The notes beneath the pieces are model-generated. The model was given only the letters and a program-made list of their open reading frames with translations, was not told the origin of the DNA and ran no database searches. Position numbers and translations under genes: made by a program. Source: Spirochaetota bacterium (lineage in GTDB: Bacteria > Spirochaetota > UBA4802 > UBA5550). Taken from it: 64,000 bases of DNA. The stretch is taken from the NCBI GenBank assembly GCA_963663865.1, contig OY760686.1, forward strand, positions 3,088,590-3,152,589, in the 5' to 3' direction. This document shows positions 15,018 through 40,149 of the stretch, in pieces (within the stretch, counting starts at the first letter, position 1; every line of letters starts with the position of its first letter).

Positions 15018-15367
15018 GGGGACGATTTTGGTTTCGACTGCAATTGCTGGTCTTCAGTGGCATGCCGAGTATCCTGTCTTCTCGTAAAAAATGGCAGGAA
15101 TGATTTAACTGCAAACGACAACTTTGCACTAGCGGCTTAATCCCCGCTACGTCTCCGAAGGCTCCTGTCCTCTGGGATCTTCACGAGGCGTCATAATCAG
15201 AGGATAGCCAATGAACAGTCTCCCGGGTTCAGAGGTGAAATTTAAGGGAGAACGGCATGCAGGACGGTGCCTTTCCCGGCCCGCATACTGTAACAAAAGA
15301 ACAGGCTAAGCATGTAGAAGCTGTGGATTTGGATTGTAGGACGCGGGTTCGACTCCCGCCGTCTCCA
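15018..15367 (+). ncRNA. ssrA: tmRNA (transfer-messenger RNA), tag peptide ANDNFALAA
   Basis: 5' GGGGACGATTTTGGTTTCGAC and 3' GGACGCGGGTTCGACTCCCGCCGTCTCCA match conserved tmRNA acceptor/T-arm ends; internal reading frame GCAAACGACAACTTTGCACTAGCGGCTTAA gives ANDNFALAA then stop. Confidence 0.85.
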
Positions 15368-15379
15368 AGACTTAACTCC

Positions 15380-24743: not shown

Positions 24744-24950
24744 CTGGTTTTATTGGATAAATTTTTAATAGGCTATTATGCAGCAAATATCCCTGTCAAA
24801 CACCTTTCAGGCGGTTTCCATAGACGGCCGAAAAATGGAATCAATCCATTGCAAATGCCCGGGGCGGCTAAATATCCTCAATAAATTTTCTTGACACCCG
24901 GCCTAAAAGCACTATTCTGCTGGAATAAAACTCTTCAAAGGAGATATGAT

Positions 24951-25226
24951 ATGAGACGCATTCTCGCAATAATGACAGCCTGCGCGCTTGCCTTTGCAGT
25001 TGCAGCGTGCACAAAAAAACAAAAGGACATGACAATTGAAGATTTCGCTAAAATCGATCTCGAAGTAGCTGTTTCCGACCAGAAACCTGAAACAATCGAG
25101 ACAATTGCGAAAAAACACGGATACACAGCAGAACAGTACGAAGAATTCTCAAAGATAATCGAAAAGAGCTCTACTCTCCAGGAAAAGCTTGGAGATATTC
25201 GTCTCGGAGAGCAAAAGTCCGAGTAA
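24951..25226 (+). CDS. small lipoprotein
   Basis: AAGGAG RBS; MRRILAIMTACALAFAVAAC lipobox; upstream TTGACA-N17-TATTCT promoter at about 24886-24914. Confidence 0.45.
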   Translation: MRRILAIMTACALAFAVAACTKKQKDMTIEDFAKIDLEVAVSDQKPETIETIAKKHGYTAEQYEEFSKIIEKSSTLQEKLGDIRLGEQKSE

Positions 25227-25245
25227 CCTTGAGCGGCTGCAGCCG

Positions 25246-26085
25246 CTACACAGTTTCAATATCCATGAAAGCCGCGGCGTTTTTTCCGAAAATCATCGCG
25301 GCTGTCTCTTTTCCACACTGCTCAATTCCCTGTACATATCGTCCGGCGCGCAGAAGCGGGAAGTCGCTTCCGAAAAGCACCCTGTCAGAACCAGCCGTCT
25401 CAGCGGCCAGCATATAAATATTTTCGCTGTAAATATATGGGGTCGCGGCCGTATCGTAGACGCATGACTGAAGCGCCTCTTTCACCTCGGGCATCAGCTC
25501 GTAGAACACAAGCCCTCCGCCCCAGTGCGAAAGCATTATTCTGACGCCGGGGTATTTCCCGATTATCCTTATCGTTTCATTAAGGGCCGGATAATACTTT
25601 CCCGGATAGCTGTGGCCCACCGGTTCGTTGACATGGAGACACAGAGGAATATCAGCCTCGCCTGCTGACTCAATAAGCGTTTCCAGGCATTTCAGCACCT
25701 TCTCATCCATTCCAGCAGAGTACCAGGCTGCTTCTCCTACACCTGAAAGCCCCAGGTCTTTTGCCGCCCTTACGGCCTTTCTGACCACGCCCGAATCACT
25801 GGAAGACGGAACAGCTCCAAAAGGAATAAGGCGCCCGTCTTTATCCGCCATGGCGGCAAAGAACTCGTTCTGCTCCATACATACATTTAAGTCTGCCCAG
25901 GGGAAGCCCATCACGAAAGCCCTGCTTATTCCCGAATCGTTCAGATAACCTGATGCCTCATCGGCTGACGCCGTCTTTGCTGCCGGGTTTGAGTACAAAA
26001 TTGAGAAACCCGGATCGGACAGGTAATTATCCCGCCGCTCAATAACACCGCTTTGAAAAACATGAATGTGAGAATCAATTACCAT
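25246..26085 (-). CDS. amidohydrolase-2 family metal-dependent hydrolase (TIM barrel)
   Basis: Start MVIDSHIHVF (HxH metal motif) with GGAAG RBS; the 15-aa N-terminal extension in the track ORF is likely not translated. Confidence 0.65.
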   Translation of the reverse strand: MVIDSHIHVFQSGVIERRDNYLSDPGFSILYSNPAAKTASADEASGYLNDSGISRAFVMGFPWADLNVCMEQNEFFAAMADKDGRLIPFGAVPSSSDSGVVRKAVRAAKDLGLSGVGEAAWYSAGMDEKVLKCLETLIESAGEADIPLCLHVNEPVGHSYPGKYYPALNETIRIIGKYPGVRIMLSHWGGGLVFYELMPEVKEALQSCVYDTAATPYIYSENIYMLAAETAGSDRVLFGSDFPLLRAGRYVQGIEQCGKETAAMIFGKNAAAFMDIETV

Positions 26086-26244
26086 ATGTTCACTTCCCGA
26101 ATTTTTCATAAACCGTAATACATAGTACACTCTCTACAGCCTCACGGCAACACGATTTCCAGACCAGACAGCCTTTTTCGTTGACAACGCGCCGGGAAAC
26201 AGCTAAGATCTGCCTGTGTGACAGCATGAGTCAGGAGGCTGAAG

Positions 26245-27249
26245 GTGAATCCTATATTTCGAATTGAATGGCCCAGGGCGACACCTAAAGAGGTGATATT
26301 TATCGCGGTGCTGCTTCTGCTGCTCGTAATCATCTACTTCTTTGTTAAATACCTTCAGCTGCAGAACCGGAAGAAAGCAAGGGAAGACTCGCTTTTCCTG
26401 ATAAAGACGCGTCAGTTGGGGCTTTCAAGCTTTCAGATAAAGCTGCTTAACAACATGATTGAGATGCTTCAGCTTACCAGGCCTGACCGCATTCTCGCGG
26501 AGCCAGCTCTCTTCGAAAATTCGGCAGGCAAACTGCTAAGCTTTCTCAAGCAAAAACAGGAAGGGAGCTTTTCAATATCTTCGGTGTGCCGCGACCTGAC
26601 CATCGCCTACGAGAAGCTTTATCATCCGTCAAGCGCCAAAAAACCTCTGGAAAGGATACAGGACATTGAAGCTGATCGCCTTCTCTACTTTGTCGCCGAT
26701 GACAACAATGTCTACTTCGGCAAGATCATTGACACCGCCGAAGACAGCATCGTAGTAAGGATGTTCAGGTCCGCGAAGGAGCTTCAATTCCTTGAAACGG
26801 AATCCACAATGAAGGTTACAATCTGGCGGCTCGGCGACGCTGAATACTACTTCACCACAACAGGCATTCTCCGGGGTGACAGGCTTATAATGAAGGCCCC
26901 CGATGAGTTCACACGCGAGCAGGAATTCCGATATCCATATGTCGACACTATTCTGCTCTGCGAAATCAGCACGGAAGCCGACGACGGAGAAACACCTGAG
27001 AAGATCAGGGCAACCATTTTCAAGATCAACGAAAAGGAGTCTGTTATCAGGCTTAAGCAGACACTTGATTACAGCAGCGAATACATTCTTGAGTTTGAGC
27101 TCAGCGACTTTAAATTCACTATAAAGTCAAAAATCATCGCCAACCGATCAATATCGGAAGCGCATATTAATTACTACACTTTGAAGTTCGGTGAGATATC
27201 GCCGGCTGCGGTAAACGTTCTCAAAAACTATCTGATTGAGCACCTCTGA
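26245..27249 (+). CDS. membrane-anchored hypothetical protein
   Basis: N-terminal TM helix (VIFIAVLLLLLVIIYFFV) then soluble domain; PilZ-like features not convincing. Confidence 0.5.
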   Translation: MNPIFRIEWPRATPKEVIFIAVLLLLLVIIYFFVKYLQLQNRKKAREDSLFLIKTRQLGLSSFQIKLLNNMIEMLQLTRPDRILAEPALFENSAGKLLSFLKQKQEGSFSISSVCRDLTIAYEKLYHPSSAKKPLERIQDIEADRLLYFVADDNNVYFGKIIDTAEDSIVVRMFRSAKELQFLETESTMKVTIWRLGDAEYYFTTTGILRGDRLIMKAPDEFTREQEFRYPYVDTILLCEISTEADDGETPEKIRATIFKINEKESVIRLKQTLDYSSEYILEFELSDFKFTIKSKIIANRSISEAHINYYTLKFGEISPAAVNVLKNYLIEHL

Positions 27250-27269
27250 AACAACGCCGGCAACCGCGT

Positions 27270-28661
27270 TCAATCAGGCAGAATTTTCCCCGGATTCAAG
27301 ATTCCGTTCGGGTCAAAGGCGAGCTTGATCCGCCTCTGCAGCTCAATCTCGGCTTCAGTCATCATTATTGCCAGGTACTCCCTGCGGAGAGCCCCGATTC
27401 CGTGTTCACCGGTAATGCTTCCGCCAAGTTCAACAGCCCTTCTGTATATCTCCCGCTTGAGCTCTGGAATCATTAAGCTCCATTCGCTGTCGCCGATTGT
27501 ATCCTTCAGGATATCGATGTGCACATTGCCGTCGCCCGCGTGTCCGAACATTATTGAGCTGAGCCCTCTTGAAACAAGGTGCCTTTTCAGAGACTTCAAA
27601 AATACCGCTATTGACGCCCTCGGAACAGAACAGTCCTCGGCAAGGAATATGGGACTCCTGCTTTCAATCGCGTCCCTCGTGGAGCGCCTCGCCTTCCAGA
27701 GCCGGGCCTTATCCTCCTCTGTGCGGGCAATAAAGACGCTGTCCGGCTCGGCGCCGGCCGCCCTGACTATGCGGGCAATGTCGCTGTCAACTGCATCCTC
27801 TGTCGCGCCGTCCGCCTGAATCAACAGATGAGCCCCCGCGTCAGGGAAAAGGATATTCCCCCCGAGATACGAAGAAACCAGCCTGATGGCGTCATGTTCC
27901 ATAAACTCGACGGCGCATGGAACCACCCTGCTCCGGAGGATTGAGGTAACAGCGTCAACAGCCAGATCAAGCGATTGGAATGGAATAAGGACGTCATACA
28001 CAACAAGAGGCGCCGGAATCAGCCTCAGGTATATCTTTGTGACAACACCGAGCACACCTTCAGAGCCGACCAGCATGGCGGTCAGATTAAGGCCTGCCGC
28101 GTTTTTGACAATCTTGCCTCCTGTCCTTATTATATCCCCGCCCGGCAGAACAAATTCATGCCCGAGGATATAGGCTCCCGTAATACCGTACTTGACGGCG
28201 CGCGGCCCGCCGGCGTTCTCAGCCAGGTTGCCTCCAATGGAACACTTGTCAAGGCTAGCCGGATCAGGCGGATACATGAGCCCGTGCTTTAGCGCCTCTT
28301 TCTGAATATCGCCTGTTATCGCCCCGGGCTCAACCACAGCGACCATGTTCTCGCCGTCAATCTCGAGAATACGGCTCATTCTCTCAAGAGAAAGCACTAT
28401 CCCGCCATTAACCGCCACGGCCCCGCCCGTGACTCCGCTGCCGCCGCCTCTCGGAATGACCGGCACTTTGAAATCATTGCATATCTTCATCACAAGCGAA
28501 ACATCATCTGAATTGCGAGCAGCGACAACGGCATCGGGGGCCGAACTCAGGTTTGACGTCTTATCAGTACAGTAAGGCTCAATACCCGCCTCATCCGTAA
28601 ACAGGACATCTGCGTGAAGGGATTTCCTGAGCAGCTCTATGGCTTCTTTGACTCTATTCAT
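27270..28661 (-). CDS. FAD-linked oxidase (GlcD / D-lactate dehydrogenase family)
   Basis: FAD_binding_4 motifs (VIPRGGGSGVTGGAV) and C-terminal FAD-oxidase_C region ending KLAFDPNGILNPGK. Confidence 0.8.
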   Translation of the reverse strand: MNRVKEAIELLRKSLHADVLFTDEAGIEPYCTDKTSNLSSAPDAVVAARNSDDVSLVMKICNDFKVPVIPRGGGSGVTGGAVAVNGGIVLSLERMSRILEIDGENMVAVVEPGAITGDIQKEALKHGLMYPPDPASLDKCSIGGNLAENAGGPRAVKYGITGAYILGHEFVLPGGDIIRTGGKIVKNAAGLNLTAMLVGSEGVLGVVTKIYLRLIPAPLVVYDVLIPFQSLDLAVDAVTSILRSRVVPCAVEFMEHDAIRLVSSYLGGNILFPDAGAHLLIQADGATEDAVDSDIARIVRAAGAEPDSVFIARTEEDKARLWKARRSTRDAIESRSPIFLAEDCSVPRASIAVFLKSLKRHLVSRGLSSIMFGHAGDGNVHIDILKDTIGDSEWSLMIPELKREIYRRAVELGGSITGEHGIGALRREYLAIMMTEAEIELQRRIKLAFDPNGILNPGKILPD

Positions 28662-28995
28662 TTATATCATCTCCGTAACAGGGACATGAAGCGCTATCGG
28701 GTTTATTTTTCAAGGGGAAAACATGGGAGCCCACTCGATCTTCCGCAATGATATTACGTGATTTATAATTCAGATTGTCAGATTTTATAACATCAATTGC
28801 GAATAATATTTGATATTTTTTGCTTTTACTGCTGGAATGTTAGATGTATTTACTTCTTCGATTTATTGTTTACCTCGTTATACATATTACCGGCTTTAAA
28901 TTTAAACGAGTGTCCGGTTTTCTGAGCTATGCTCAGTTCACATCGTTAGACGAACTTAAAACATCCATAGTCAAAAAAACACTTGAGGGGGAGTT

Positions 28996-29628
28996 GTGAA
29001 CCTGTACAAAAACAAATACCGAGCAGAATCAGCGCGCCTGAAGGCATGGGACTATTCATCTAACGGTAGATATTATATTACGATTTGCGTGAATAATCAC
29101 GAATGTGTCTTCGGATATATTACAGCCAGAAAAATGGTCCTCTCGAATCTCGGAAAAAATGCAGAATCTTGTTGGCGTGAGATTCCTCATCATTTCCCAT
29201 TTGTGAAATTGGATGAATATGTTGTCATGCCAAATCATATACACGGCATCATCGTTATTGAAAAAACCGTGAAACACCGGAAACACGGGGAATCCGCGAA
29301 ACACGGGGAATCCGTAGAGACGCAAAATCTTGCGTCTCTACAATCGAACGTGTCGGAATCAAACGTGCCACCGTCGAACGTGTCGGTATCGAACATGCCA
29401 CCGTCGAATTTCGGCCCCCAATCAAAAAATATTGCATCGATCATACGCGGTTTTAAAATCGGTGTTACAAAATATGCGGTGAATAACAACATTCCATTTA
29501 AATGGCAACCCCGGTTTCATGATCACATCATACGCGATGAAAATGATTTAAACCGCATCCGCAAGTATATAATGAATAATCCATTAAATTGGGGACCACC
29601 CTCACGGCAGGGGAATATTTTCTCTTGA
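28996..29628 (+). CDS. IS200/IS605-type Y1 (HuH) transposase, REP-associated tyrosine transposase-like, with internal low-complexity repeat insertion
   Basis: HuH motif MPNHIHGIIVI, catalytic Tyr motif RKYIMNNPLNW, WQPRFHDHIIRDE signature; the segment between these motifs is encoded by direct repeats plus a palindrome. Confidence 0.7.
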   Translation: MNLYKNKYRAESARLKAWDYSSNGRYYITICVNNHECVFGYITARKMVLSNLGKNAESCWREIPHHFPFVKLDEYVVMPNHIHGIIVIEKTVKHRKHGESAKHGESVETQNLASLQSNVSESNVPPSNVSVSNMPPSNFGPQSKNIASIIRGFKIGVTKYAVNNNIPFKWQPRFHDHIIRDENDLNRIRKYIMNNPLNWGPPSRQGNIFS

Positions 29629-29672
29629 CTTTACACATAGCATTGTGTAATCTTATTGCAGAGGTAAATTAT

Positions 29673-29870
29673 ATGGCAACTAATTTAAATATCGATATGA
29701 AACTGTTAGATGAAGTTTATGAAATGGGAAATTTCAAAACTAAAAAGGAAGCAGTAAACGTTGCGCTTAAGGAGTATATCCAGAAGCATCGACAAAAAGA
29801 ATTGTTGAAATTTCTAAACAAAGTTGATTTTGATAAAGCCTATGATTACAAAAAAGCACGAAATAGATGA
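29673..29870 (+). CDS. vapB: type II antitoxin (VapB-like)
   Basis: 66 aa MATNLNIDMKLLDEVYEMGNFKTKKEAVNVALKEY...; stop overlaps PIN toxin start (ATGA). Confidence 0.65.
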   Translation: MATNLNIDMKLLDEVYEMGNFKTKKEAVNVALKEYIQKHRQKELLKFLNKVDFDKAYDYKKARNR

Positions 29871-30292
29871 CAAAATTCATCATAGACACCTCGGTATGGT
29901 CTGAAGCGCTCCGCCGAAAAAAGAATACTGTAAATTCTTCTGAAACTGTTGTCAGAAAGATTATAGAAAATGATGATGAGATTGTTATTTTAGGTATAAT
30001 TCTTCAGGAAATTCTAACCGGCATCTCAAATGAAAAATTATATAGAGAGATAAAAAACATTTTGGATGATTTTGTGTACTTAGATATTACAAAAAGTGAC
30101 TACATTTACGCCTCTGAGTTAAGCAATAAATGCAGATCAAAAGGTATTATTGCTGGATCAATTGATTTTTTAATTGCAAGCGCTGCAATCAGAAACGAAA
30201 TACAACTGGTAACTTTCGACAAAGACTTTTTCAACATAGGTAAACATTCCGATTTAAAAATTGTAGACTTAGATCGTTTTCTTGAAAATTAA
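29867..30292 (+). CDS. vapC: PIN-domain toxin VapC
   Basis: FIIDTSVW...D...TFDKDF acidic PIN signature, 141 aa. Confidence 0.85.
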   Translation: MTKFIIDTSVWSEALRRKKNTVNSSETVVRKIIENDDEIVILGIILQEILTGISNEKLYREIKNILDDFVYLDITKSDYIYASELSNKCRSKGIIAGSIDFLIASAAIRNEIQLVTFDKDFFNIGKHSDLKIVDLDRFLEN

Positions 30293-30666
30293 GGTAATTT
30301 ACAAGGCTTACCCGCGTCGTTCGGAGAACATCGCCTGGGACTTCGTCGATGTTGCGGCACCAGGCCGCCGCAACTTAAAAGAGCGCTATTGTCACAACCT
30401 CAGAAGGAGTATTTAACAAAACTTCAATACAATCAGGCGATGACAATACCGCTTCACGGATAACATCCCCCCGCCGCAAACGAAGAACAGTATATTTTGG
30501 AGACAGAGTACAATTATAACCCAAAGCTATTTACACAAAAGATCTGATACTCTCAAGTATTTCTTGACATGGGCGATTCTACATATAAATAAAATCTTAT
30601 AAATCAATTGTAATTTTCAACTTTCGTTCTGCGGGTCGACATTAAAAACAAACATTGGAGTTTTTT

Positions 30667-30930
30667 ATGAAAATACTTAATTTTATTTCTTTAACATTAT
30701 TACTTTTTTCATTATCTCATTGTGATATTAATGACGATGCAAACGATGTATGTTTTTCTCCAACACAAAATATTGATATTGCATATAAAGAGGGTTCAAT
30801 TGGATGTTCGTGTGATAAAAATGTTGATGAGGACATTTGTGTCGATGGAGCAGCATTAATGTGTAAAGTGGATAGATGGGTTGCAGTTGAAGATGGACCT
30901 TGCATGCCCTTACCTCCACAGCTTGAATAA
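30667..30930 (+). CDS. small secreted cysteine-rich protein
   Basis: GGAG RBS before ATG at 30667; signal peptide MKILNFISLTLLLFSLSHC; 8 Cys in mature part. Confidence 0.4.
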   Translation: MKILNFISLTLLLFSLSHCDINDDANDVCFSPTQNIDIAYKEGSIGCSCDKNVDEDICVDGAALMCKVDRWVAVEDGPCMPLPPQLE

Positions 30931-31222
30931 CAATATCATAAAACTTTTTATAATAGCTTTAATATAATTGCCTCAGTCCGTATTATCGAGGAGCCCCAAC
31001 CGCTTAACTGGAAGTGCCCCTCCGCCGACGAAGAACAGCTCTTCCGAGCAAAAGGACATTACCACCTCCCCGCCCATACAATTTCTTGAAACTTTTAAAA
31101 ATCTTTATATACATATTAAGTAATTTAAGATATAATAAACCTTAAATACCAAATCAGTCATATCTGCTTCTGTACAAAAAGCAAACAGCTGATTTTTAAC
31201 AAAAACCAATATGGAGGAAACT

Positions 31223-31582
31223 ATGCCTGAATTTGCCAATCCTTTCAGTGTAAAAAAAAGCGACAGAAAGCTGACTGACCAGGAACTGGTGAGGTCAATC
31301 AGACTCATGATAGCAGCAGAATACGAGGCCATTCAGCTCTATCAGCAGCTTGCCGAATCTACGGACAACAAGCTCGCTCAGCAGGTACTCATTGACATCG
31401 CCGACGAAGAGAAGGTGCACGCTGGAGAGTTCCTGCGTCTGCTTAAAGAATTAGACCCTCAGGAAGAGGAATTCTATAGGGAAGGCGCGCAGGAAGTCGA
31501 AGAGGAATTCCTCTCCGGCGGTGGACAATCCGGACAGAGCGGAACAGAGGACCTGGGAATAGGAAGCCTTAAAAACACATGA
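31223..31582 (+). CDS. ferritin-like protein (Flp), encapsulin cargo with C-terminal targeting peptide
   Basis: Rubrerythrin/ferritin-like ExxH motifs (EYEAIQLY, EEKVHAGEF); Gly-rich linker GGGQSGQSG; C-terminal DLGIGSLK matches the family-1 encapsulin cargo-loading peptide. Confidence 0.75.
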   Translation: MPEFANPFSVKKSDRKLTDQELVRSIRLMIAAEYEAIQLYQQLAESTDNKLAQQVLIDIADEEKVHAGEFLRLLKELDPQEEEFYREGAQEVEEEFLSGGGQSGQSGTEDLGIGSLKNT

Positions 31583-31598
31583 CATTGAGGAGGAAAAG

Positions 31599-32402
31599 AT
31601 GAATCTGCTAAGACAAAGCTTTGCCCCCATCAGTGAAAGCGGATGGGATGAAATAAACGGTCTCGCAAAAGAGACGCTGACTGCCAACCTTTCAGCGAGA
31701 AGATTCTGCGATGTTGAAGGCCCGTTTGGAATCAACTATACCGGCGTCAACCTCGGAAGGCTTGAAGTCCCTCAGGGCCAGAAGAAGGACGCTGTCCAGT
31801 ATGGAATCAACAGGGTGCTTCCTCTTGTAGAAGCCAGGGTGAGCTTCTCAGTAAATATCTGGGAACTCGACAATGTGGAACGCGGAGCGAAGGACATTGA
31901 ACTTGATGCCGTAGTTGAAGCGGCAAAGAAGATGGCCGCCTTTGAGGAAAGCGCCGTATACAACGGCCTTCCTGAAGCCGGCATTGAAGGACTTAACGGC
32001 TCAGCTGACGCTTCAAGGACAGTTGAGATGTCCCTCGAGAAGGACAGCGTCATTGACTCCATCAGCGAAGGACTCAGAATTATGCGAAGCAGCGGAATTG
32101 ACTCCGAGGCTAACCTTATTGTTAACCCGGAACTGTGGAAGTTTCAGGCGCGGATGTTCCCAGGCGGGAACCTCGGTGCTTCAATTAAAAAGCAAATTGG
32201 CGGTTCGATAATCTATTCCGATACTGTTAAGGGCGCGCTGCTTGTTTCAAACCGCGATGGCGACTTTGAACTCACAATCGGACAGGACTTTTCAGTAGGC
32301 TACCACAGCCACGATTCAGAGAAGGTCAACCTCTTCCTGAGCGAATCCTTCACTTTCAGAATAATAACGCCCGAAGCGCTTGTGGCATTTAAAATCAAGT
32401 AA
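31599..32402 (+). CDS. family 1 encapsulin shell protein (HK97 fold, linocin/CFP29-like)
   Basis: Strong similarity, aligned from memory, to Thermotoga maritima encapsulin (RSFAPLTE..W.EID, VDVEGP, LDNLERG, VSERGGDF.L..GQD..IGY, PEAL); 16 bp after cargo gene. Confidence 0.85.
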   Translation: MNLLRQSFAPISESGWDEINGLAKETLTANLSARRFCDVEGPFGINYTGVNLGRLEVPQGQKKDAVQYGINRVLPLVEARVSFSVNIWELDNVERGAKDIELDAVVEAAKKMAAFEESAVYNGLPEAGIEGLNGSADASRTVEMSLEKDSVIDSISEGLRIMRSSGIDSEANLIVNPELWKFQARMFPGGNLGASIKKQIGGSIIYSDTVKGALLVSNRDGDFELTIGQDFSVGYHSHDSEKVNLFLSESFTFRIITPEALVAFKIK

Positions 32403-32430
32403 GACTCGCCAAAGACTAAATATAAGAAAA

Positions 32431-32462
32431 AGCCCACGGTCTGAAAACCGCGGGCTTTTTTA
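32431..32462 (+). terminator. rho-independent terminator after encapsulin operon
   Basis: AGCCCACGG/CCGCGGGCT stem (8/9 bp), 8-nt loop, followed by TTTTTTT. Confidence 0.6.
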
Positions 32463-32505
32463 ATCGGATGTAAGCCGTCAGGCCGTAACCCCGGCATCCG
32501 TGTAA

Positions 32506-32823
32506 TTACTCTTTGTCCATGTGAGGGCACTTCTTATGTCCCTTTCCGTCACGGGCAGGCATTTTGTCTCCCATTCTCTCATTCCAGCAGAAAAGGGCTT
32601 CGCTCTTTTCGCCGCGCCCCTCATGCTTCTTGCAGACTCCCTCTACGGTCTCTCCGTCTCTGTCCTTAAAAGAGCAGGCATCTCCCGCTTTTTTTGACTC
32701 GCACGCCACAAAGGGATTGCCGTCAGAGCTCATTCCCTTCCCTTTCTTCGCTTCAGCGGGTGACCCGGTCAAATAGACAGCGGCAGCCGAAAACACGAAA
32801 GCCAGTACCAACAGCTTTTTCAT
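32506..32823 (-). CDS. small secreted Cys/Lys/His-rich protein (possible metal-binding)
   Basis: AAGGAG RBS, signal peptide MKKLLVLAFVFSAAAVYL, mature part rich in C, H, K, D/E. Confidence 0.45.
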   Translation of the reverse strand: MKKLLVLAFVFSAAAVYLTGSPAEAKKGKGMSSDGNPFVACESKKAGDACSFKDRDGETVEGVCKKHEGRGEKSEALFCWNERMGDKMPARDGKGHKKCPHMDKE

Positions 32824-33023
32824 AAAGCACACTCCTTGTTTTTATCCCAAACAGCCGTACAGCTGAATTCGGTCCGGCATATGACCTCGCGAACAGAAAA
32901 AGGTTCCATTTTTTGCTCTGTTTAAAGTATAAAACATTCAGCTGTATTTTTCCATTTTTTTAGGCATGATGGAGCCGCGGCTGCGACAATGTTTAACCGT
33001 GAACACAAAGAAAAGGGCCGGGA

Positions 33024-34199
33024 TTACCCTTTAACAGACATTCCGTCATAGAGGTACTTTTTCGTGGAAAAATACTCTTCTCCCTTGCCCGGGGCGACAT
33101 AGCATGCGCCTCCGATATTCGACCTTTCGGGAATGCGGCTGTCCCTCCCGACAAGGGTAATCCCTGAGAAAAGCGCTTTGGGATAATCGCTGTTTTTCAG
33201 AGAAACCACATCTGACCCTATATTCGCGTAGCTCCCGACATTGAAGTAGTCTTCCACATCCCCGTTTTCGTCGGGAACAGGAAAATTAGTCTTCTCATCA
33301 ACAATGGCCCTTGTAATTCTGGCTCCGGGGGCTATACGGGCAAAAGGCAATACTATTGAATCCTTTATAACGGACCTGGCGCCTATTTCAGCTCCCGGAT
33401 AGATGATTGAATTCTCAATCCGTCCGTCAATATGGCAGTTATCGGTTATGAAAGAGCTCGCTATCTCTGCATTCTCGCCAATAAAAGAGAAACCCTCTCT
33501 GTGAATCTTGCCTTCAAGCAGGTTCTGTTCAAACAGAAGCGAGGCAATCTCTCTGTTGTATATCACTTCACGGCTTGCTTCGTAGTACTCGGGAATATTT
33601 CTAAGTGGCCAGTACAGCGCGTCAAACTTTTCCTTCTTTATACCGCTATTAATAATAACATTGATAACCATCTCAAATATGTTTGGAGAATGGAGCTTAT
33701 CGTCTATGGCTTTTTTGATAACTTTCAATAAGGTCTTCTGTTTTGTCACAAGCATCTTGTAGGCCATTGACGCCTTTCCGTCAACGTTCAGAAGAAAGAG
33801 CGCAGAGTCGGCCTTTTTCTTCTTGAAACGTTCAATGATTCTTGAGAAGTCGATAACCGAAGGGCTGTCGCCATTGTAGATTATATAATATGGCGTATTG
33901 GTATCCATTATAAGGCGGTAGCAGAAATTAATGTCGGAAAACTTCTGGGCAACAACCCTGATTGAGGGAAAGCGTCCGCCCCCCGCGGTATACCTTTTGG
34001 TGTAGTCTGACAGTCCGTCCACAACATTACTGTAGATAATTGTACTCTGAGCATGGGACGCCGCCGAATTTCTGACGGTAAAATCTACAACCCGAAACCT
34101 TCCGCCAAACGGAATCATATAGCGGGACCTGCCCTCGGTCAGGGAGAGAAGAGAATCGTCCCGGGCCCCCGGGTAGGAAATAATGGTAAAGTAATCCAT
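33024..34199 (-). CDS. GlgC/GlgD-family nucleotidyltransferase-like protein with C-terminal left-handed beta-helix (GlgD-like, probably non-catalytic)
   Basis: MIPFGGRFRVVDFTVRNS matches ADP-glucose pyrophosphorylase core but Gly-rich GGxGxRL loop is absent; hexapeptide repeats at C-terminus. Confidence 0.5.
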   Translation of the reverse strand: MDYFTIISYPGARDDSLLSLTEGRSRYMIPFGGRFRVVDFTVRNSAASHAQSTIIYSNVVDGLSDYTKRYTAGGGRFPSIRVVAQKFSDINFCYRLIMDTNTPYYIIYNGDSPSVIDFSRIIERFKKKKADSALFLLNVDGKASMAYKMLVTKQKTLLKVIKKAIDDKLHSPNIFEMVINVIINSGIKKEKFDALYWPLRNIPEYYEASREVIYNREIASLLFEQNLLEGKIHREGFSFIGENAEIASSFITDNCHIDGRIENSIIYPGAEIGARSVIKDSIVLPFARIAPGARITRAIVDEKTNFPVPDENGDVEDYFNVGSYANIGSDVVSLKNSDYPKALFSGITLVGRDSRIPERSNIGGACYVAPGKGEEYFSTKKYLYDGMSVKG

Positions 34200-34306
34200 G
34201 AACCAGTCCTGTCAGCAAGAAATTTGCCCCCCATTGGTACAGCGGGCAGACCTGTACGAATTAAAATTATTCTTGCAGTAAAAATGCAATTAAAAAACAA
34301 TACAGC

Positions 34307-35833
34307 ATGAACAATAGAGTATTAACCATCATGCCCGCCTCTATCAGGGTGGAATTCGCGAAAGGTTCAATCCTTTCAGAAGTGATGAATGACGCCGGTT
34401 TTCCGGTCAACACGCCGTGCGGCGGGCGTGGAACCTGCGGAAAATGCGGAGTTCTTCTGAGCGGAACATTCGCGGACGTCTCCAGCCCGAACAATATTAT
34501 GACAACTACTGATGCCGAAACGCGGCTCTCCTGCAGAACCATTCTGCTGGGAGACTCCACGGTAACCGTAAAGACACCGTCAGCGCTTACGACAGGCCCG
34601 TCAAGCCGCACCGCAATTTCACACGCAGGCATTGCCGCAGATATAGGCACAACCGGCATACAGATTTCTTTTGTTGACCTCGATACCGGACAAATCCTTC
34701 AAACCCATTCATTTCTCAATCCCCAGCGCCGCTATGGGCACGATGTCATATCAAGGGCAGCGGCTTCACAAGATCCCGAGGTATCATCAAGGCTGTCCAC
34801 ACTGCTTCTTGATTCGTTAAAAAACACTCTTAACATGTTCGAACGCGGAAATTTTTTTTCAGGGGAGGATATAGCCGCAGCCGTGTTTTCAGGCAACACG
34901 TCCATGACAGCTTCGCTTGCAGGAATCAGCTTTTCAGGTATTGGGACATATCCCTACCACGCTCCGGCGCTTGACTTCCAGCTGCTGTCAAAGAGCTCAG
35001 CAGGGCTGCCGGAATCCTGCGAAGTCAGCTTACACCCCGCAGCTTCCGCGTTCATTGGCGGCGACATAACAGGCGGCATCGCATATCTCGAGAAGATTGG
35101 GCTGCCGGACAAATCATTCTTCTTCGACATCGGCACCAATGGAGAGATGGTGCTCTTCAGCAGCGGTGAATTCTACGCTGCCTCATGCGCCATGGGGCCC
35201 GCCCTCGAGGGAATGAACATATCATCGGGAATGACAGCCTCCGATGGAGCAATAACCAGAGTCACCCTCGCCGACGGCAAACTCAACTTCAGCGTAATCG
35301 GCGGCGGGGCGGCCTCGGGCATCGCAGGGAGCGGAATAATAGACCTTATGGCCATACTGCTGCAAGCCGGCATCATCAGCCGGGACGGGGCCTTTGCCCG
35401 ACAGGCACCGGCCGGGGCCGAAGAGATGTTCAGCAGGCTTAACGCGGGGAAATTCACTCTGACAGAGAATACAGGGCTTACACAGAAAGACATCCGCGCT
35501 GTTCAGCTTGCTAAAGGCGCAAGCCTTGCTTCGGCGGAAATGCTCCTTGCTGAATGCGGTATCTCCGCCGAAGAAATCAGTTCTGTATTCGTTGCCGGGG
35601 CATTCGGGGAGAACATCGACATGGAAAGCTTCCGGACCCTCAAGCTGCTGCCGGATTTCAGAAATGCAGAATACATTACCGCAGGAAACACCAGCCTAAA
35701 ATCCGCGGTGGAGTCACTGAAAGACAGAGCATTCCGGCACAGGGTTAAAGACATAGCTTCGCGCATGACGGTGATCGAGCTTTCTGCAAAGGCAGAATTC
35801 AACGACCTTTTCCTCAAATCTCTGAGCTTCTGA
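34307..35833 (+). CDS. 2Fe-2S ferredoxin + ASKHA ATPase fusion (RACo-like / DUF4445 family)
   Basis: N-terminal plant-type ferredoxin CGGRGTCGKCGV; C-terminal actin-like ATPase with Gly-rich phosphate loops (DIGTTGIQ, DIGTNGEM). Confidence 0.6.
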   Translation: MNNRVLTIMPASIRVEFAKGSILSEVMNDAGFPVNTPCGGRGTCGKCGVLLSGTFADVSSPNNIMTTTDAETRLSCRTILLGDSTVTVKTPSALTTGPSSRTAISHAGIAADIGTTGIQISFVDLDTGQILQTHSFLNPQRRYGHDVISRAAASQDPEVSSRLSTLLLDSLKNTLNMFERGNFFSGEDIAAAVFSGNTSMTASLAGISFSGIGTYPYHAPALDFQLLSKSSAGLPESCEVSLHPAASAFIGGDITGGIAYLEKIGLPDKSFFFDIGTNGEMVLFSSGEFYAASCAMGPALEGMNISSGMTASDGAITRVTLADGKLNFSVIGGGAASGIAGSGIIDLMAILLQAGIISRDGAFARQAPAGAEEMFSRLNAGKFTLTENTGLTQKDIRAVQLAKGASLASAEMLLAECGISAEEISSVFVAGAFGENIDMESFRTLKLLPDFRNAEYITAGNTSLKSAVESLKDRAFRHRVKDIASRMTVIELSAKAEFNDLFLKSLSF

Positions 35834-36061
35834 CGCAGTTCCCCCTCAAAACACAGCAGAATGAAACACGGCCCTTCACTTCCTTTGATTTGCCTGAGCC
35901 AATGGCACTAATTATTTACCAGATAATTAATATTTAATTGACATTAACAATATATGAGTGCATTGTTTCAGGCCGCAAACCTGTTAAACAGTTTCACGAT
36001 TCATTGATGACAGCCGCTCAGCCGGACTAAAGACTCTGCTCTTCTCAACTGGAGTATAACG

Positions 36062-38200
36062 ATGAAGCCTCTCGAAAAATTAACGCAGGTTGTAACCCCC
36101 CTCCCAAGAGGAGGGTTCCTTGTAGACACCCCGCGTGGATATATTCAGTTTGGGATTCCGCCAGAAACCATTAAAGACACAATGATGCTGCCGCAGGGAA
36201 CCCCGGGTGTTTTTGTCCTTCCTGTACACTTCTTCAACTGGATGAAGGGAATAAGCGTAGCTGAGCTTGAATTTCCGATATATTACAACTTTTTCATCCG
36301 AAAGAAAAAAACAGTGATAATCTGCCTGAAAAAAGAGACAGACAGGCTTATAAGCGTCCTGTCAGAGGCCCTCTTCGGACCCGACGAACCCGAGCTCAAA
36401 GATGATTACATTCCAGATTACACAGAAGTCCCTGACATAAAGCCGGAGATGGATTATTTCCGCACAATGGAGCTGAATGACGTGGTCGAATTTCGTCATT
36501 TCACCGACGGAAAATGCGATATTGACAATGTGAGTATCAGTATCGACAGCGCGGACAACTTCACTGTATCTATTGACGGTAATGTTATAGCCTTTGTGCC
36601 AGGAATTATCGAGTACAAACCAAGATATCTCATTGGAGAAAGGCTTGCCGAGCCATTCAAGCCGCCCCTGTTCGCGGTAACCTGTCTCGGTTCCAGCTCC
36701 GGATTCGATCCGTCGGCAAACACTTCCGGTTTTATTATATGGCTGAATCACCGTGGAATAATGATCGATCCTCCTGTTAATTCAACTGAATGGCTTCTTG
36801 ATTCTAACGTCAGCCCGAAACACATTGATTCAATTATTCTCACACACTGCCACGCCGATCACGACGCCGGCACATTCCAGAAGATACTTCAGGAAGAAAA
36901 GGTGACGGTGTATACGACAAAGACAATATTGAACAGCTTTCTCAGAAAGTACTCGGCGCTGACAGGAGTGGACAGTTCATTCCTCCTTAGACTTTTTACA
37001 TTCGTCCCTCTTGAACTGGGTAAGCCTTTTTTCATCAATGACGGATGTTTCGACTTTTTTTACACGCTTCACTCAATCCCGACCATCGGTTTCCGGCTGT
37101 CGTTTCAAAAAGACTCGCTCACCTACTCCTCCGATCACAATGCCGACCCCGAGCTTCACAAAAAGCTCCTCGATGAAGGCCGCATTTCGCGCAAGCGCTA
37201 TGACGAGCTTCAGGCTTTCCCCTGGGATTCAACTATCGTCTATCACGAATCAGGGGTTGCCCCCCTTCATACGCCTGTTGAGTACCTCAGTTCGCTCTCC
37301 GATGAAAAGAAAAAGAAAATCACTGTTTACCATATACCCGAGTCTTCTATTCCTGAAAAAGCAAAGTTGACTCCCGCCCGATTCGGAATTGAAAACACCT
37401 ACTATTTTAAAACAGAGACCTCTGACTTTGACGGAGCGTACCAGCTGCTGAACATTCTCAGGCATATTGACTTTGCCGAAGACATGCCTATCAGCAAGGC
37501 GCAGGACTTCCTTAATCTCGGGTTTACTGAGAATTTCAGCAAAGGGGCAAAGATCATTGAGAGCGGCACCGTAGGATCACGCTTTTTTATCATCCATTCG
37601 GGCAATGTCCTTATAAAAAGCAAAGACGGCAAATACACAAAGGTGTTGGGACCCTATGACTATTTTGGCGAAACTGCCCTTCTCATCAACGAGGAGAGAA
37701 CAGCTGACGTAACAGCGCTAACCGAGGTGGCCACCTATTCCATCAGAAAAGATAAATTTCTGTCCTTCATCAAAGGCACTGACTTTGAAAAGACATTGAG
37801 AAACCTTGCCAGAATACGAGACCTTGAAGCCTGGGAGACATTATCCTCAAGCCGCGCAATAACCTACTGCACCCCCACGCAGAGGAACCACCTTGAATCC
37901 ATTCTTGAACCGGCAGCCTTTCAGGCAGGACACTGCCTTATTGCAGAGGGTACTCTTATTGATTCAATCTACATTATCAGAGAGGGCCGAATAGCCATGC
38001 TCGAACAGGGAACACTTTCGCTGATGCTGCGCAAAGGCGACCTTGCTGGCTCCACGGCGGATTTCTACGAGCGCCGTCCGTCAAATGCAAGCTTCTACTG
38101 TGAAGACGATGTCAAACTCTACAGGATTCAGAGCGAGCACCTGTTTCCGTTTCTTGAAAAAAATCCGGGCCTCTATATGAAATTCAGATATTACTCTTAA
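36062..38200 (+). CDS. multidomain protein: N-terminal unknown domain + metallo-beta-lactamase-fold hydrolase + two cyclic-nucleotide-binding domains
   Basis: MBL motif ILTHCHADHDAG; two cNMP-binding-like modules (FGETALL...RTADV and RKGDLAGSTADFY). Confidence 0.65.
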   Translation: MKPLEKLTQVVTPLPRGGFLVDTPRGYIQFGIPPETIKDTMMLPQGTPGVFVLPVHFFNWMKGISVAELEFPIYYNFFIRKKKTVIICLKKETDRLISVLSEALFGPDEPELKDDYIPDYTEVPDIKPEMDYFRTMELNDVVEFRHFTDGKCDIDNVSISIDSADNFTVSIDGNVIAFVPGIIEYKPRYLIGERLAEPFKPPLFAVTCLGSSSGFDPSANTSGFIIWLNHRGIMIDPPVNSTEWLLDSNVSPKHIDSIILTHCHADHDAGTFQKILQEEKVTVYTTKTILNSFLRKYSALTGVDSSFLLRLFTFVPLELGKPFFINDGCFDFFYTLHSIPTIGFRLSFQKDSLTYSSDHNADPELHKKLLDEGRISRKRYDELQAFPWDSTIVYHESGVAPLHTPVEYLSSLSDEKKKKITVYHIPESSIPEKAKLTPARFGIENTYYFKTETSDFDGAYQLLNILRHIDFAEDMPISKAQDFLNLGFTENFSKGAKIIESGTVGSRFFIIHSGNVLIKSKDGKYTKVLGPYDYFGETALLINEERTADVTALTEVATYSIRKDKFLSFIKGTDFEKTLRNLARIRDLEAWETLSSSRAITYCTPTQRNHLESILEPAAFQAGHCLIAEGTLIDSIYIIREGRIAMLEQGTLSLMLRKGDLAGSTADFYERRPSNASFYCEDDVKLYRIQSEHLFPFLEKNPGLYMKFRYYS

Positions 38201-38212
38201 TCGGGGACCTTT

Positions 38213-39130
38213 TCAGGAAAGCAGACCATCCTCTACTACAACGAGGACGCCCCGTTCCATCAAACGCCGTACCGGCCCGTAGTCGGTCACTGGATTTCCT
38301 ATTATGCTGACGTACTCCAGAAACGGCATGTTTTCCAGAACAGAAATATCTTCTATCATATTAAAACTGATATCAAGCTCCTTGAGATTCTTTAACCCGC
38401 CGAGCGGATCAATATTTTCAATCCTGTTATCTGAAATATACAGAGACTCGAGTTCAATCAATTCCGCGATTGGACCTGTTCGTATGATCCCGTTGCCGGA
38501 TAAATTCAGGGCCGAAATATACGGGCACTTTTCCAAACCCTCCAGAGAGTTTATTCCATAATCAGACAGGTCGATTTCGCCGTCAAGGTTCAGCAAGTCC
38601 GCATCAGAGAGATCAATATCCAATCCGCCTACAAAGTACCTGTGCAGGGCCTCAAAAAAGCTGATTCCGTCATCTTCTTCATCCTCTTCAAAATACAAAT
38701 CGTCATCTTTAATATCTGAAGCTGCCTGCTCTGCATAGCCGAAGTCAGAGGCGGAATAGCTGAACGATTCCTCAAAAACTACCGGCTCGGCCTGGCTTTC
38801 ACCTGGCGAACCGGAAGGCAGATATAACGCTGCAAGCCTCGCCAGACCCTCCGAATCCGATTTTTCCATCAGCTCATCAGCTTTTTTATGAATAAATACA
38901 TATCTGTCAGGATGGAAACGCCTTACAGCGAGGCTGAAGAGCTTTTGAGCGCTGATATCATGACTGCTTTCATCCCCGGGAAGATAATATCGAAGCCTTC
39001 TAAAATCTTTTCGCTTGTAAGAAGCAATAATATCTATCGTGGTTTTCTTAAGGTATTCCGGTGTTACTCTGTTTTTAAGCTCTTTATAATAAAAATCGCC
39101 TGATTCTGAGAATTCAGCCATTAAGGACAT
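38213..39130 (-). CDS. cytoplasmic leucine-rich-repeat protein with degenerate N-terminal J-domain
   Basis: LRR units LxxLxLSxNxI x5-6 at C-terminus; AQKLFSLAVRRFHPDR resembles J-domain helix II + HPD; acidic linker; no signal peptide. Confidence 0.55.
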   Translation of the reverse strand: MSLMAEFSESGDFYYKELKNRVTPEYLKKTTIDIIASYKRKDFRRLRYYLPGDESSHDISAQKLFSLAVRRFHPDRYVFIHKKADELMEKSDSEGLARLAALYLPSGSPGESQAEPVVFEESFSYSASDFGYAEQAASDIKDDDLYFEEDEEDDGISFFEALHRYFVGGLDIDLSDADLLNLDGEIDLSDYGINSLEGLEKCPYISALNLSGNGIIRTGPIAELIELESLYISDNRIENIDPLGGLKNLKELDISFNMIEDISVLENMPFLEYVSIIGNPVTDYGPVRRLMERGVLVVVEDGLLS

Positions 39131-39165
39131 CCTCCATAAAAAAAACAGTAAAACCGGGAAGCCGG

Positions 39166-40149
39166 TTACTTTCGGGATTTTTTAAAAAAATCTTCGAACA
39201 GGTTCCTGTCAATTTTAATGAGCCTTGTCCGTATTTCAGTAAGATTTTCAAAGGAGTAGCTCTGAAACTCGAAGTAGTCAATGAGCCACAGGTACTTGTT
39301 TATAAGGCGGGGCACAACATTTGATTCCTCAATCTGGTCTCTGTTCATTCGCTGATAGTTCATTTCCAGCCTGTAAATATCGTCCTTAATGGATTCGACC
39401 TGCCTCTCCTGAAGGTTTTTTCTCACATAGAACACATCCTCAATAAATCCGTAGACAGGAATCCATTCCCTGACATCTCCCTGACCGGGACAACGGGCGA
39501 GGACAATCTCCTTAAGGCGGACTACCGGCTCGGCGGTTATCATGCTTAAATCAATATCAGAAGGATTTACAAAGAATGCTTCCTTAAAAAGCCACAGACT
39601 TTTGGGGATATCGCCTGTATGGAAAAAAGCTTCGCCAAGAATTGAAAGAAGCCTGGCATTGCTGTTATACGACCTGCCGGCATATTCGAGGGTCTCTATT
39701 GCCTTCTCATAATCGCCCAGCTTAAGAAAGCACTCGCCCAGGTTGAGAAGTAAATCAAAGTTGTCTGCGGTCTCTTCCTGATTCAGAAAAGCCTTTCGGT
39801 AATTTTCAGAGGCTCTGTAAAAAACATGTTTCATCGCGGCCCGATAGGCTGAAGAGTTATACATGCGGGATTCGGCCGCGTACTCTTCAAAAGCCTTCCA
39901 CTCCGCCATCAGGAAGTCAGCTGTTTTTTTTCCCTCAGGTAATGACTCAAACTCCGGCACCCGGTTCTGCCAGAAGCGGGACGTCCTGTAAGACTCTATC
40001 AGGCCCGGATAGTCAGGATTGGCGGACATCAGCCTGTCCAGCAGAAGCACGGCCTGCCCGAATCTGCCTTCCTCAATAAGCGAATAGACCTCTCCGGCTG
40101 AATTCAGCACCGGATCATCCGAAAATGTCATCTGACCATTATTATCCAT
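39166..40149 (-). CDS. TPR-repeat protein
   Basis: Multiple 34-aa helical repeats with W/L/G/Y/A/F/A/P pattern. Confidence 0.6.
   Translation of the reverse strand: MDNNGQMTFSDDPVLNSAGEVYSLIEEGRFGQAVLLLDRLMSANPDYPGLIESYRTSRFWQNRVPEFESLPEGKKTADFLMAEWKAFEEYAAESRMYNSSAYRAAMKHVFYRASENYRKAFLNQEETADNFDLLLNLGECFLKLGDYEKAIETLEYAGRSYNSNARLLSILGEAFFHTGDIPKSLWLFKEAFFVNPSDIDLSMITAEPVVRLKEIVLARCPGQGDVREWIPVYGFIEDVFYVRKNLQERQVESIKDDIYRLEMNYQRMNRDQIEESNVVPRLINKYLWLIDYFEFQSYSFENLTEIRTRLIKIDRNLFEDFFKKSRK

Follow-up and report, generated by a model that had tools for sequence, protein, structure and literature searches.

The closest described relatives of the locus reported here, a two-gene operon in a 64-kb stretch of the Spirochaetota contig OY760686.1, are family-1 encapsulin nanocompartments that carry encapsulated ferritin-like (EncFtn) cargo. 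In Thermotoga maritima, the shell protein TmEnc (3DKT/7K5W) and its Flp/EncFtn cargo are likewise encoded by a two-gene operon, with the cargo gene preceding the shell gene. EncFtn decamers have been solved from Rhodospirillum rubrum (5DA5), Pyrococcus furiosus (5N5E), and Myxococcus xanthus (EncB/EncC, 7S5C and 7S8T), all of which display an E...Y pair and an E-x-x-H motif on two long helices. In R. rubrum, E32, Y39, E62, and H65 are the residues of the di-iron ferroxidase centre, and ferroxidase activity is reduced or lost when they are mutated (PMC11202242). In P. furiosus, EncFtn and its shell form one fusion protein, and in M. xanthus the shell loaded by EncB/C is a T=3 particle. The expected EncFtn architecture consists of a structured domain of about 100 amino acids (aa), a disordered linker of 10-40 aa, and a C-terminal targeting peptide, for which the family-1 consensus is SDGSLGIGSLKRS (PMC8346489).

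Here, "the window" refers to the whole analysed stretch of 64,000 nucleotides (nt). At positions 31223-32402 of its forward strand, it contains what is most probably a self-contained two-gene family-1 encapsulin operon encoding an iron-oxidising and iron-storing nanocompartment with EncFtn cargo, a reading to which a probability of about 0.93 is assigned. Every trait that defines a family-1 encapsulin carrying EncFtn/Flp cargo and can be tested in the sequence is present. An earlier note on this DNA had described a complete operon of this kind with a ferritin-like cargo and had considered it a known system type, and this description was borne out by matches to the Linocin_M18, encap_f1, and EncB_fam models. 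The cargo gene (encFtn/flp) extends from the ATG at 31223 to the stop codon at 31580-31582 (+) and encodes 119 aa, and the shell gene (encA, 31599-32402, +) encodes a T. maritima-like HK97-fold protein of 267 aa.

The 119-aa product is assigned to the encapsulated ferritin-like proteins as a ferroxidase subunit built of two helices. Its best family match is the NCBIfam model EncB_fam (NF058679; 113.4 bits, cutoff 90; protein residues 1-116 on positions 1-117 of 117), and Pfam Rubrerythrin is also matched above its cutoff (34.5 vs 22.8 bits). Among solved structures, the closest cargo relatives are the P. furiosus EncFtn (5n5e, E = 9.4e-17) and M. xanthus EncC (7s8t, E = 2.5e-15), and HMMER alignments place the Glu and Tyr of helix 1 and the ExxH motif of helix 2 in register with both proteins. 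The match to R. rubrum EncFtn is weak (E = 0.056). E33, Y40, E63, and H66 of the window cargo show a spacing identical to that of E32/Y39/E62/H65 in R. rubrum, a correspondence mapped by spacing rather than by direct alignment. All residues that characterize EncFtn are found: helix 1 supplies the Glu, helix 2 the ExxH motif, and the conserved Tyr is also there. Unlike the fused P. furiosus protein, the window cargo is free, and unlike the T=3 setting of M. xanthus EncB/C, a cargo of that sequence type here accompanies a TmEnc-like shell of the T=1 type.

The C-terminal part of the cargo follows the same architecture. Family models cover residues 1-97, after which come a Gly/Ser/Gln-rich, putatively flexible linker (SGGGQSGQSGTE, residues 98-109, encoded at 31514-31549, +) and the targeting, or cargo-loading, peptide DLGIGSLKNT (residues 110-119, 31550-31579, +), so that the protein ends in ...EEEFLSGGGQSGQSGTEDLGIGSLKNT. 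The segment LGIGSLK is identical to the core of the family-1 consensus, in agreement with the previous description of a Gly/Ser linker followed by a textbook cargo-loading peptide. The linker sequence varies among homologues while both of its flanks are conserved, and the peptide itself is kept as D[LI][GS]IGSL[KR] in every cargo encoded at the 14 loci from other lineages discussed below. No other targeting-peptide-like C-terminus was found among the open reading frames (ORFs) of the 64-kb window, in which the cargo is the only one. A dedicated adjacent cargo whose C-terminus bears a targeting peptide also places the shell within family 1.

Full-length homology supports the assignment of the shell protein, and for both shell and cargo the family scores greatly exceed what chance would give. 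It matches Pfam Linocin_M18 (PF04454) with 259.9 bits (cutoff 24.3; E = 2.7e-77; protein residues 1-252 on positions 1-253 of 253) and NCBIfam encap_f1 (NF041155) with 246.6 bits (cutoff 100; residues 4-264 on positions 1-261 of 261). Against the T. maritima encapsulin (7k5w/3dkt), residues 1-265 of its 267 align with residues 1-264 (E = 2.5e-56), with 36% identity over 262 columns and gaps of one or two residues only, so that large insertions or deletions are absent. The earlier expectation that the shell would align over its full length with an HK97-fold encapsulin is thus confirmed, and by homology the protein is predicted to adopt this fold with its A-domain, P-domain, and E-loop. The resemblance to TmEnc is limited to 36% identity, and the window protein comes from an uncultured bacterium in a metagenome (ENA ERZ21862645) rather than from a cultured isolate. 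In addition, 22 further family-1 shells, all of T=1 type and comparable in size, match it at E <1e-39, whereas T=3 and T=4 shells do so only at 1e-9 to 1e-4. Because T=1 shells match far better, a T=1 60-mer is predicted. The flavin-stacking Trp87 of TmEnc is retained as W88 and Arg79 as R80; a Trp at the position of TmEnc Trp87 occurs in only about 10% of Linocin_M18 sequences (PMC8086157).

By analogy with the characterized systems, the operon products may act as follows. Two-helix EncFtn subunits would pair, with E33, E63, and H66 forming a di-iron ferroxidase centre at the dimer interface and Y40 lying nearby, and the dimers would then assemble into a ring-shaped decamer. The linker would present DLGIGSLKNT, which may dock in a hydrophobic cleft on the shell protein's inner face during assembly, while the shell protein self-assembles around the cargo into a T=1 particle of 60 subunits and about 24 nm. 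Fe(II) passing through the shell pores would be oxidised by the cargo and laid down inside as ferric mineral. In this way, iron would be stored and Fenton-active Fe(II) would be kept from peroxide.

The arrangement of expression signals is compatible with a single transcriptional unit. Exactly 16 bp separate the cargo stop codon from the shell start codon, and each gene is preceded by a Shine-Dalgarno sequence, read from the DNA, that lies 5 nt ahead of its ATG (GGAGG at 31213-31217 for the cargo and GAGGAGG at 31587-31593 for the shell, both +). An alternative in-frame ATG for the cargo at 31211 overlaps the region of the first of these sites. Given the position of GGAGG and the fact that cargo homologues start with MPDF or MPEF, the ATG at 31223 is taken as the true start. 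Downstream, an A-run, a GC-rich hairpin, and a T-run form an intrinsic terminator (32426-32461) that a terminator scan called on both strands (folding free energy -20.6 kcal/mol, z = -3.0 vs shuffles); it is common to the operon and to the convergent gene at 32506-32823. Both the 16-bp gap and the strong terminator had been reported previously, and all coordinates given there are correct. Since the genes are separated by so short a gap, a Shine-Dalgarno sequence precedes each of them, and only one terminator is found, after the second gene, they are probably co-transcribed. A candidate sigma-70-type promoter, TATACA-17-TATAAT (31108-31136, +), found by consensus scan only, matches 10 of 12 positions and lies about 87 nt 5' of the cargo start. 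Its assignment is tentative, because the AT-rich upstream region yields an excess of promoter-like sites in such a scan (13 vs 3.5 expected).

Several observations weigh against this interpretation or limit its scope. Despite its match to EncB_fam, the cargo falls below the cutoffs of two other relevant models, TIGR04535 (96.2 vs 125 bits) and Pfam EncFtn-like (23.9 vs 27 bits). In the shell, the five-fold pore residues His187 and Tyr188 of TmEnc are replaced by a gap and a Gly, and for this reason the pore properties of the two shells may differ. No Fur or PerR operator above chance level was detected 5' of encFtn in the window, where the best site matches 11 of 19 positions of the Fur box and was equalled or exceeded in 467 of 500 shuffles. 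Iron-responsive regulation of the operon is unproven here, because no Fur/PerR-like operator stands out upstream. Finally, assembly, T number, cargo loading, and iron mineralisation are all extrapolated from homologues.

Comparison with a sibling strain provides evidence of functional constraint. The window is identical to contig ctg38309l of ENA ERZ21862645 (L005) over the 6.3-kb stretch compared, and a sibling strain (L004) from the same ENA sample ERZ21862645 is colinear with window positions 24882-40000 at 96.4% nucleotide identity. The two strains were assembled as separate contigs of 429 kb (L005) and 1.39 Mb (L004). Between window and sibling, the shell gene shows 35 synonymous changes and 1 non-synonymous change, and the cargo gene shows 6 synonymous and 2 non-synonymous changes; neither gene contains stops or gaps in either strain. 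The encFtn-encA pair is clearly under purifying selection, which is strong on the shell. Antisense ORFs over the operon were dismissed because the codon changes show this selection.

Hundreds of shell homologues are present in databases, the nearest of which (59-67% identity) belong to Deferribacteraceae, Denitrovibrio, Treponemataceae, and other Spirochaetota, with the nearest named homologues from Deferribacteres and Treponemataceae at 62-65% identity. The encFtn-encA pair recurs in five other lineages, in 14 loci (L001/L002 from Deferribacteraceae, L003 from KSB1, L014-L023 from Treponemataceae, and L024). The uncharacterised pairs of Deferribacteraceae, Denitrovibrio acetiphilus, Treponemataceae, and other Spirochaetota have shells 59-67% and cargo proteins 77-80% identical to those of the window, and they share its layout, with a cargo of 118-121 aa ending in a DLGIGSL[KR] tail directly before a shell of 266-268 aa. 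However, their neighbourhoods are unlike that of the window and comprise TonB receptor, AraC, and GGDEF genes, MCP, SIMPL, and PIN genes, or transposases together with thrS-infC. Beyond the two genes themselves, synteny is absent: the other encapsulin loci encode no homologue of any of six neighbours in the window. Because the same pair is found in wholly different neighbourhoods, often beside toxin-antitoxin or transposase genes, the pattern fits horizontal spread of encFtn-encA as a unit. In L014/L015 (3511-4081) and L024 (750-4983), PIN-domain or transposase genes are likewise found immediately upstream of the pair, and the remaining neighbourhood is unrelated.

Regulation may differ between these lineages as well. 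In contrast to the window, the Deferribacteraceae loci carry a Fur-box-like site, GATAAAAATTATCCTTTTC, 5' of encFtn (about 5510-5530 in L001 and 5545-5565 in L002), which matches the consensus at 15 of 19 positions in L001 and 14 of 19 in L002 and was equalled or exceeded by 1 and 10 of 500 shuffles, respectively. This difference suggests that the same operon is regulated differently in the two groups.

Upstream of the operon lies a low-GC islet (about 28600-31200), with a GC content of 31-43% vs about 50% on either side, which contains a RAYT-like HUH transposase gene, vapB, vapC, and then a small lipoprotein gene. The earlier statement that the operon adjoins a mobile islet is therefore upheld by both the base composition and the gene content of this region. 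The RAYT-like ORF (28996-29628, +) carries the HUH motif NHIHG and scores 54.7 bits against REP_Tyr_transpos, below the cutoff of 80; an internal 30-nt tandem duplication (29344-29403) gives rise to a low-complexity SNV/PPSN insert. The VapB antitoxin gene (29673-29870, +; VapB_antitoxin, 64.9 bits) and the VapC toxin gene (29867-30292, +; VapC, 96.7 bits) overlap by 4 bp and form a type II toxin-antitoxin pair. When compared with the sibling strain, the RAYT gene shows 17 gaps and its sibling counterpart is called at 167 aa, with no Pfam match, while the VapC gene shows 1 gap and its sibling call is a 72-aa PIN fragment; these differences are consistent with frameshifts of both genes in the sibling. 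A search for repetitive extragenic palindrome (REP)-like repeats tied to the RAYT gene yielded a single direct repeat in the window, present in two copies that surround the small lipoprotein gene.

That gene (30667-30930, +), the last of the islet, lies in DNA of about 32% local GC and encodes an acidic, Cys-rich putative lipoprotein of 87 aa that is judged not to be part of the encapsulin system. The mature protein has an isoelectric point of 4.05 and contains 7 Cys, 3 Lys, and no His. Besides one identical copy, its relatives comprise four homologues that are 44-56% identical; 25 columns of the family are invariant, among them six Cys that follow the signal region, and the protein carries the signature CYSPTQN...GCSCD...W.AVEDGPCMP. 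An imperfect direct repeat with the core CCGCCG..ACGAAGAACAG flanks the gene on both sides (30450-30490 and 31000-31038), and further copies of it were sought in the rest of the window and not found. Because the repeat brackets the gene and occurs nowhere else in the window, the arrangement suggests an independently inserted cassette.

On the other side of the operon, the convergent gene at 32506-32823 (-) encodes a Lys-rich secreted protein of 105 aa, likewise judged not to be part of the system, which carries one copy of an unannotated four-Cys module and belongs to a widespread family of secreted proteins. The mature form contains 14 Lys, 5 Cys, 3 His, and 4 Met and ends in the tail GHKKCPHMDKE. 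HMMER returned 122 family matches, in which the module of 35-45 aa (PPxVxAC..K..GD.CSF..RDG....G.C......L.C) occurs 1-7 times in tandem per protein, in more than 100 secreted proteins; only the four Cys are conserved across the family. For the module core, the prediction is a small beta fold stabilised by disulfides, with the fungal antifungal protein NFAP2 as its nearest counterpart. The downstream protein has no Pfam or NCBIfam match, none of the scanned family members has a Pfam family, and comparison with Pfam, NCBIfam, PHROG, and PADLOC families gave no match for either small protein.

The earlier note had presented these two neighbours as small Cys/His/Lys-rich secreted proteins that could be metal-related, and had raised the question of whether they co-occur with encapsulins elsewhere. 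Part of this description holds: both ORFs encode signal peptides, and the downstream protein is indeed rich in Cys, His, and Lys, but the upstream protein is rich in Cys and Asp instead. In favour of a role of the two proteins as accessory metal-handling components of the encapsulin are their direct adjacency to the operon, the use of the same bidirectional terminator by the downstream gene, the Cys- and His-containing tail of its product together with its five Cys, three His, and four Met, and the retention of both genes in the sibling strain. However, both proteins are exported while encapsulins are cytoplasmic, neither matches a metal-binding family, the His/Cys tail of the downstream protein is not conserved in its family, and the upstream protein is acidic, lacks His, and is encoded in the islet within a direct repeat of its own. 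Moreover, a tblastn search (E <= 0.1) found neither small protein near the 14 other encapsulin loci of five lineages, save one chance-level match of 38 aa; this sample is modest, with 13 loci offering about 6 kb on at least one side and the KSB1 locus L003 being a contig of 3.4 kb. Thus, neither gene lies within 6 kb of the pair in L001, L002, L014-L023, or L024, nor is it present on L003. Conversely, no encapsulin or EncFtn was found in eight loci that encode homologues of the small proteins (L006-L013, seven of which span only 0.55-2 kb), including the two loci with DNA for homologues of the upstream protein (L006 and L007). Given this lack of co-occurrence, a role as accessory components is largely refuted and is considered highly improbable, and the suggestion that the proteins are metal-related encapsulin partners is not supported. 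A functional tie of the downstream protein alone to the encapsulin in this species, for example as an extracytoplasmic metal-handling or antimicrobial partner, is also very unlikely. Both genes are best treated as unrelated neighbours and should not be annotated as encapsulin-associated.

Phage capsids have the HK97 fold in common with encapsulins, and only 300 bp separate the operon from the mobile islet upstream, so the shell gene might in principle be a remnant capsid gene of an HK97-type prophage. The shell, however, has no PHROG match at E <= 0.01, no phage genes (terminase, portal, or protease) were called among its neighbours, and curated encapsulin models as well as solved encapsulins match the protein along its entire length, with a dedicated cargo bearing a targeting peptide encoded directly upstream. 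The operon also has a host-like GC content of about 50%, unlike that of the islet. A prophage origin is rejected on the basis of the missing PHROG match and the lack of called phage genes nearby, and its probability is practically negligible. A further reading is that the two genes are intact but belong to a decaying or non-functional system carried as cargo of the adjacent mobile islet. Within that islet, the genes for RAYT and VapC are gapped and shorter in the sibling, consistent with frameshifts, and the pairs of L014/L015 and L024 also adjoin PIN or transposase genes. On the other hand, the ratio of 35 synonymous changes to 1 non-synonymous change in the shell gene and the intact state of both genes in both strains are at odds with decay, the GC content of the operon fits the host rather than the islet, and the islet has no genes in common with the other encapsulin loci. 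There is very little chance that such a decaying system explains the locus, and a maintained, self-contained encapsulin operon remains the preferred explanation.

Two other features of the window were noted. Beyond the downstream small gene, 33024-34199 (-) encodes a GlgD/GlgC-like protein of 391 aa with a hexapeptide-repeat C-terminus, which scores far under all NCBIfam cutoffs (91 bits vs 237-470). Its gene shows 25 synonymous and 2 non-synonymous changes relative to the sibling, indicating strong purifying selection. Because of its sub-cutoff scores together with this selection, the product is classified as a divergent sugar-nucleotidyltransferase-like protein. A tmRNA gene is located at 15018-15368 (+; Rfam RF00023, 201 bits) and specifies the tag peptide ANDNFALAA. 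ARAGORN found no tRNA genes in the window, and no other Rfam family reached its gathering threshold there.

Taken as a whole, the locus adds one more encapsulin with all canonical features from an uncultured lineage, a result of little import beyond annotation. In the genome of this spirochaete, it is safe to annotate it as a nanocompartment for iron storage and oxidative stress.

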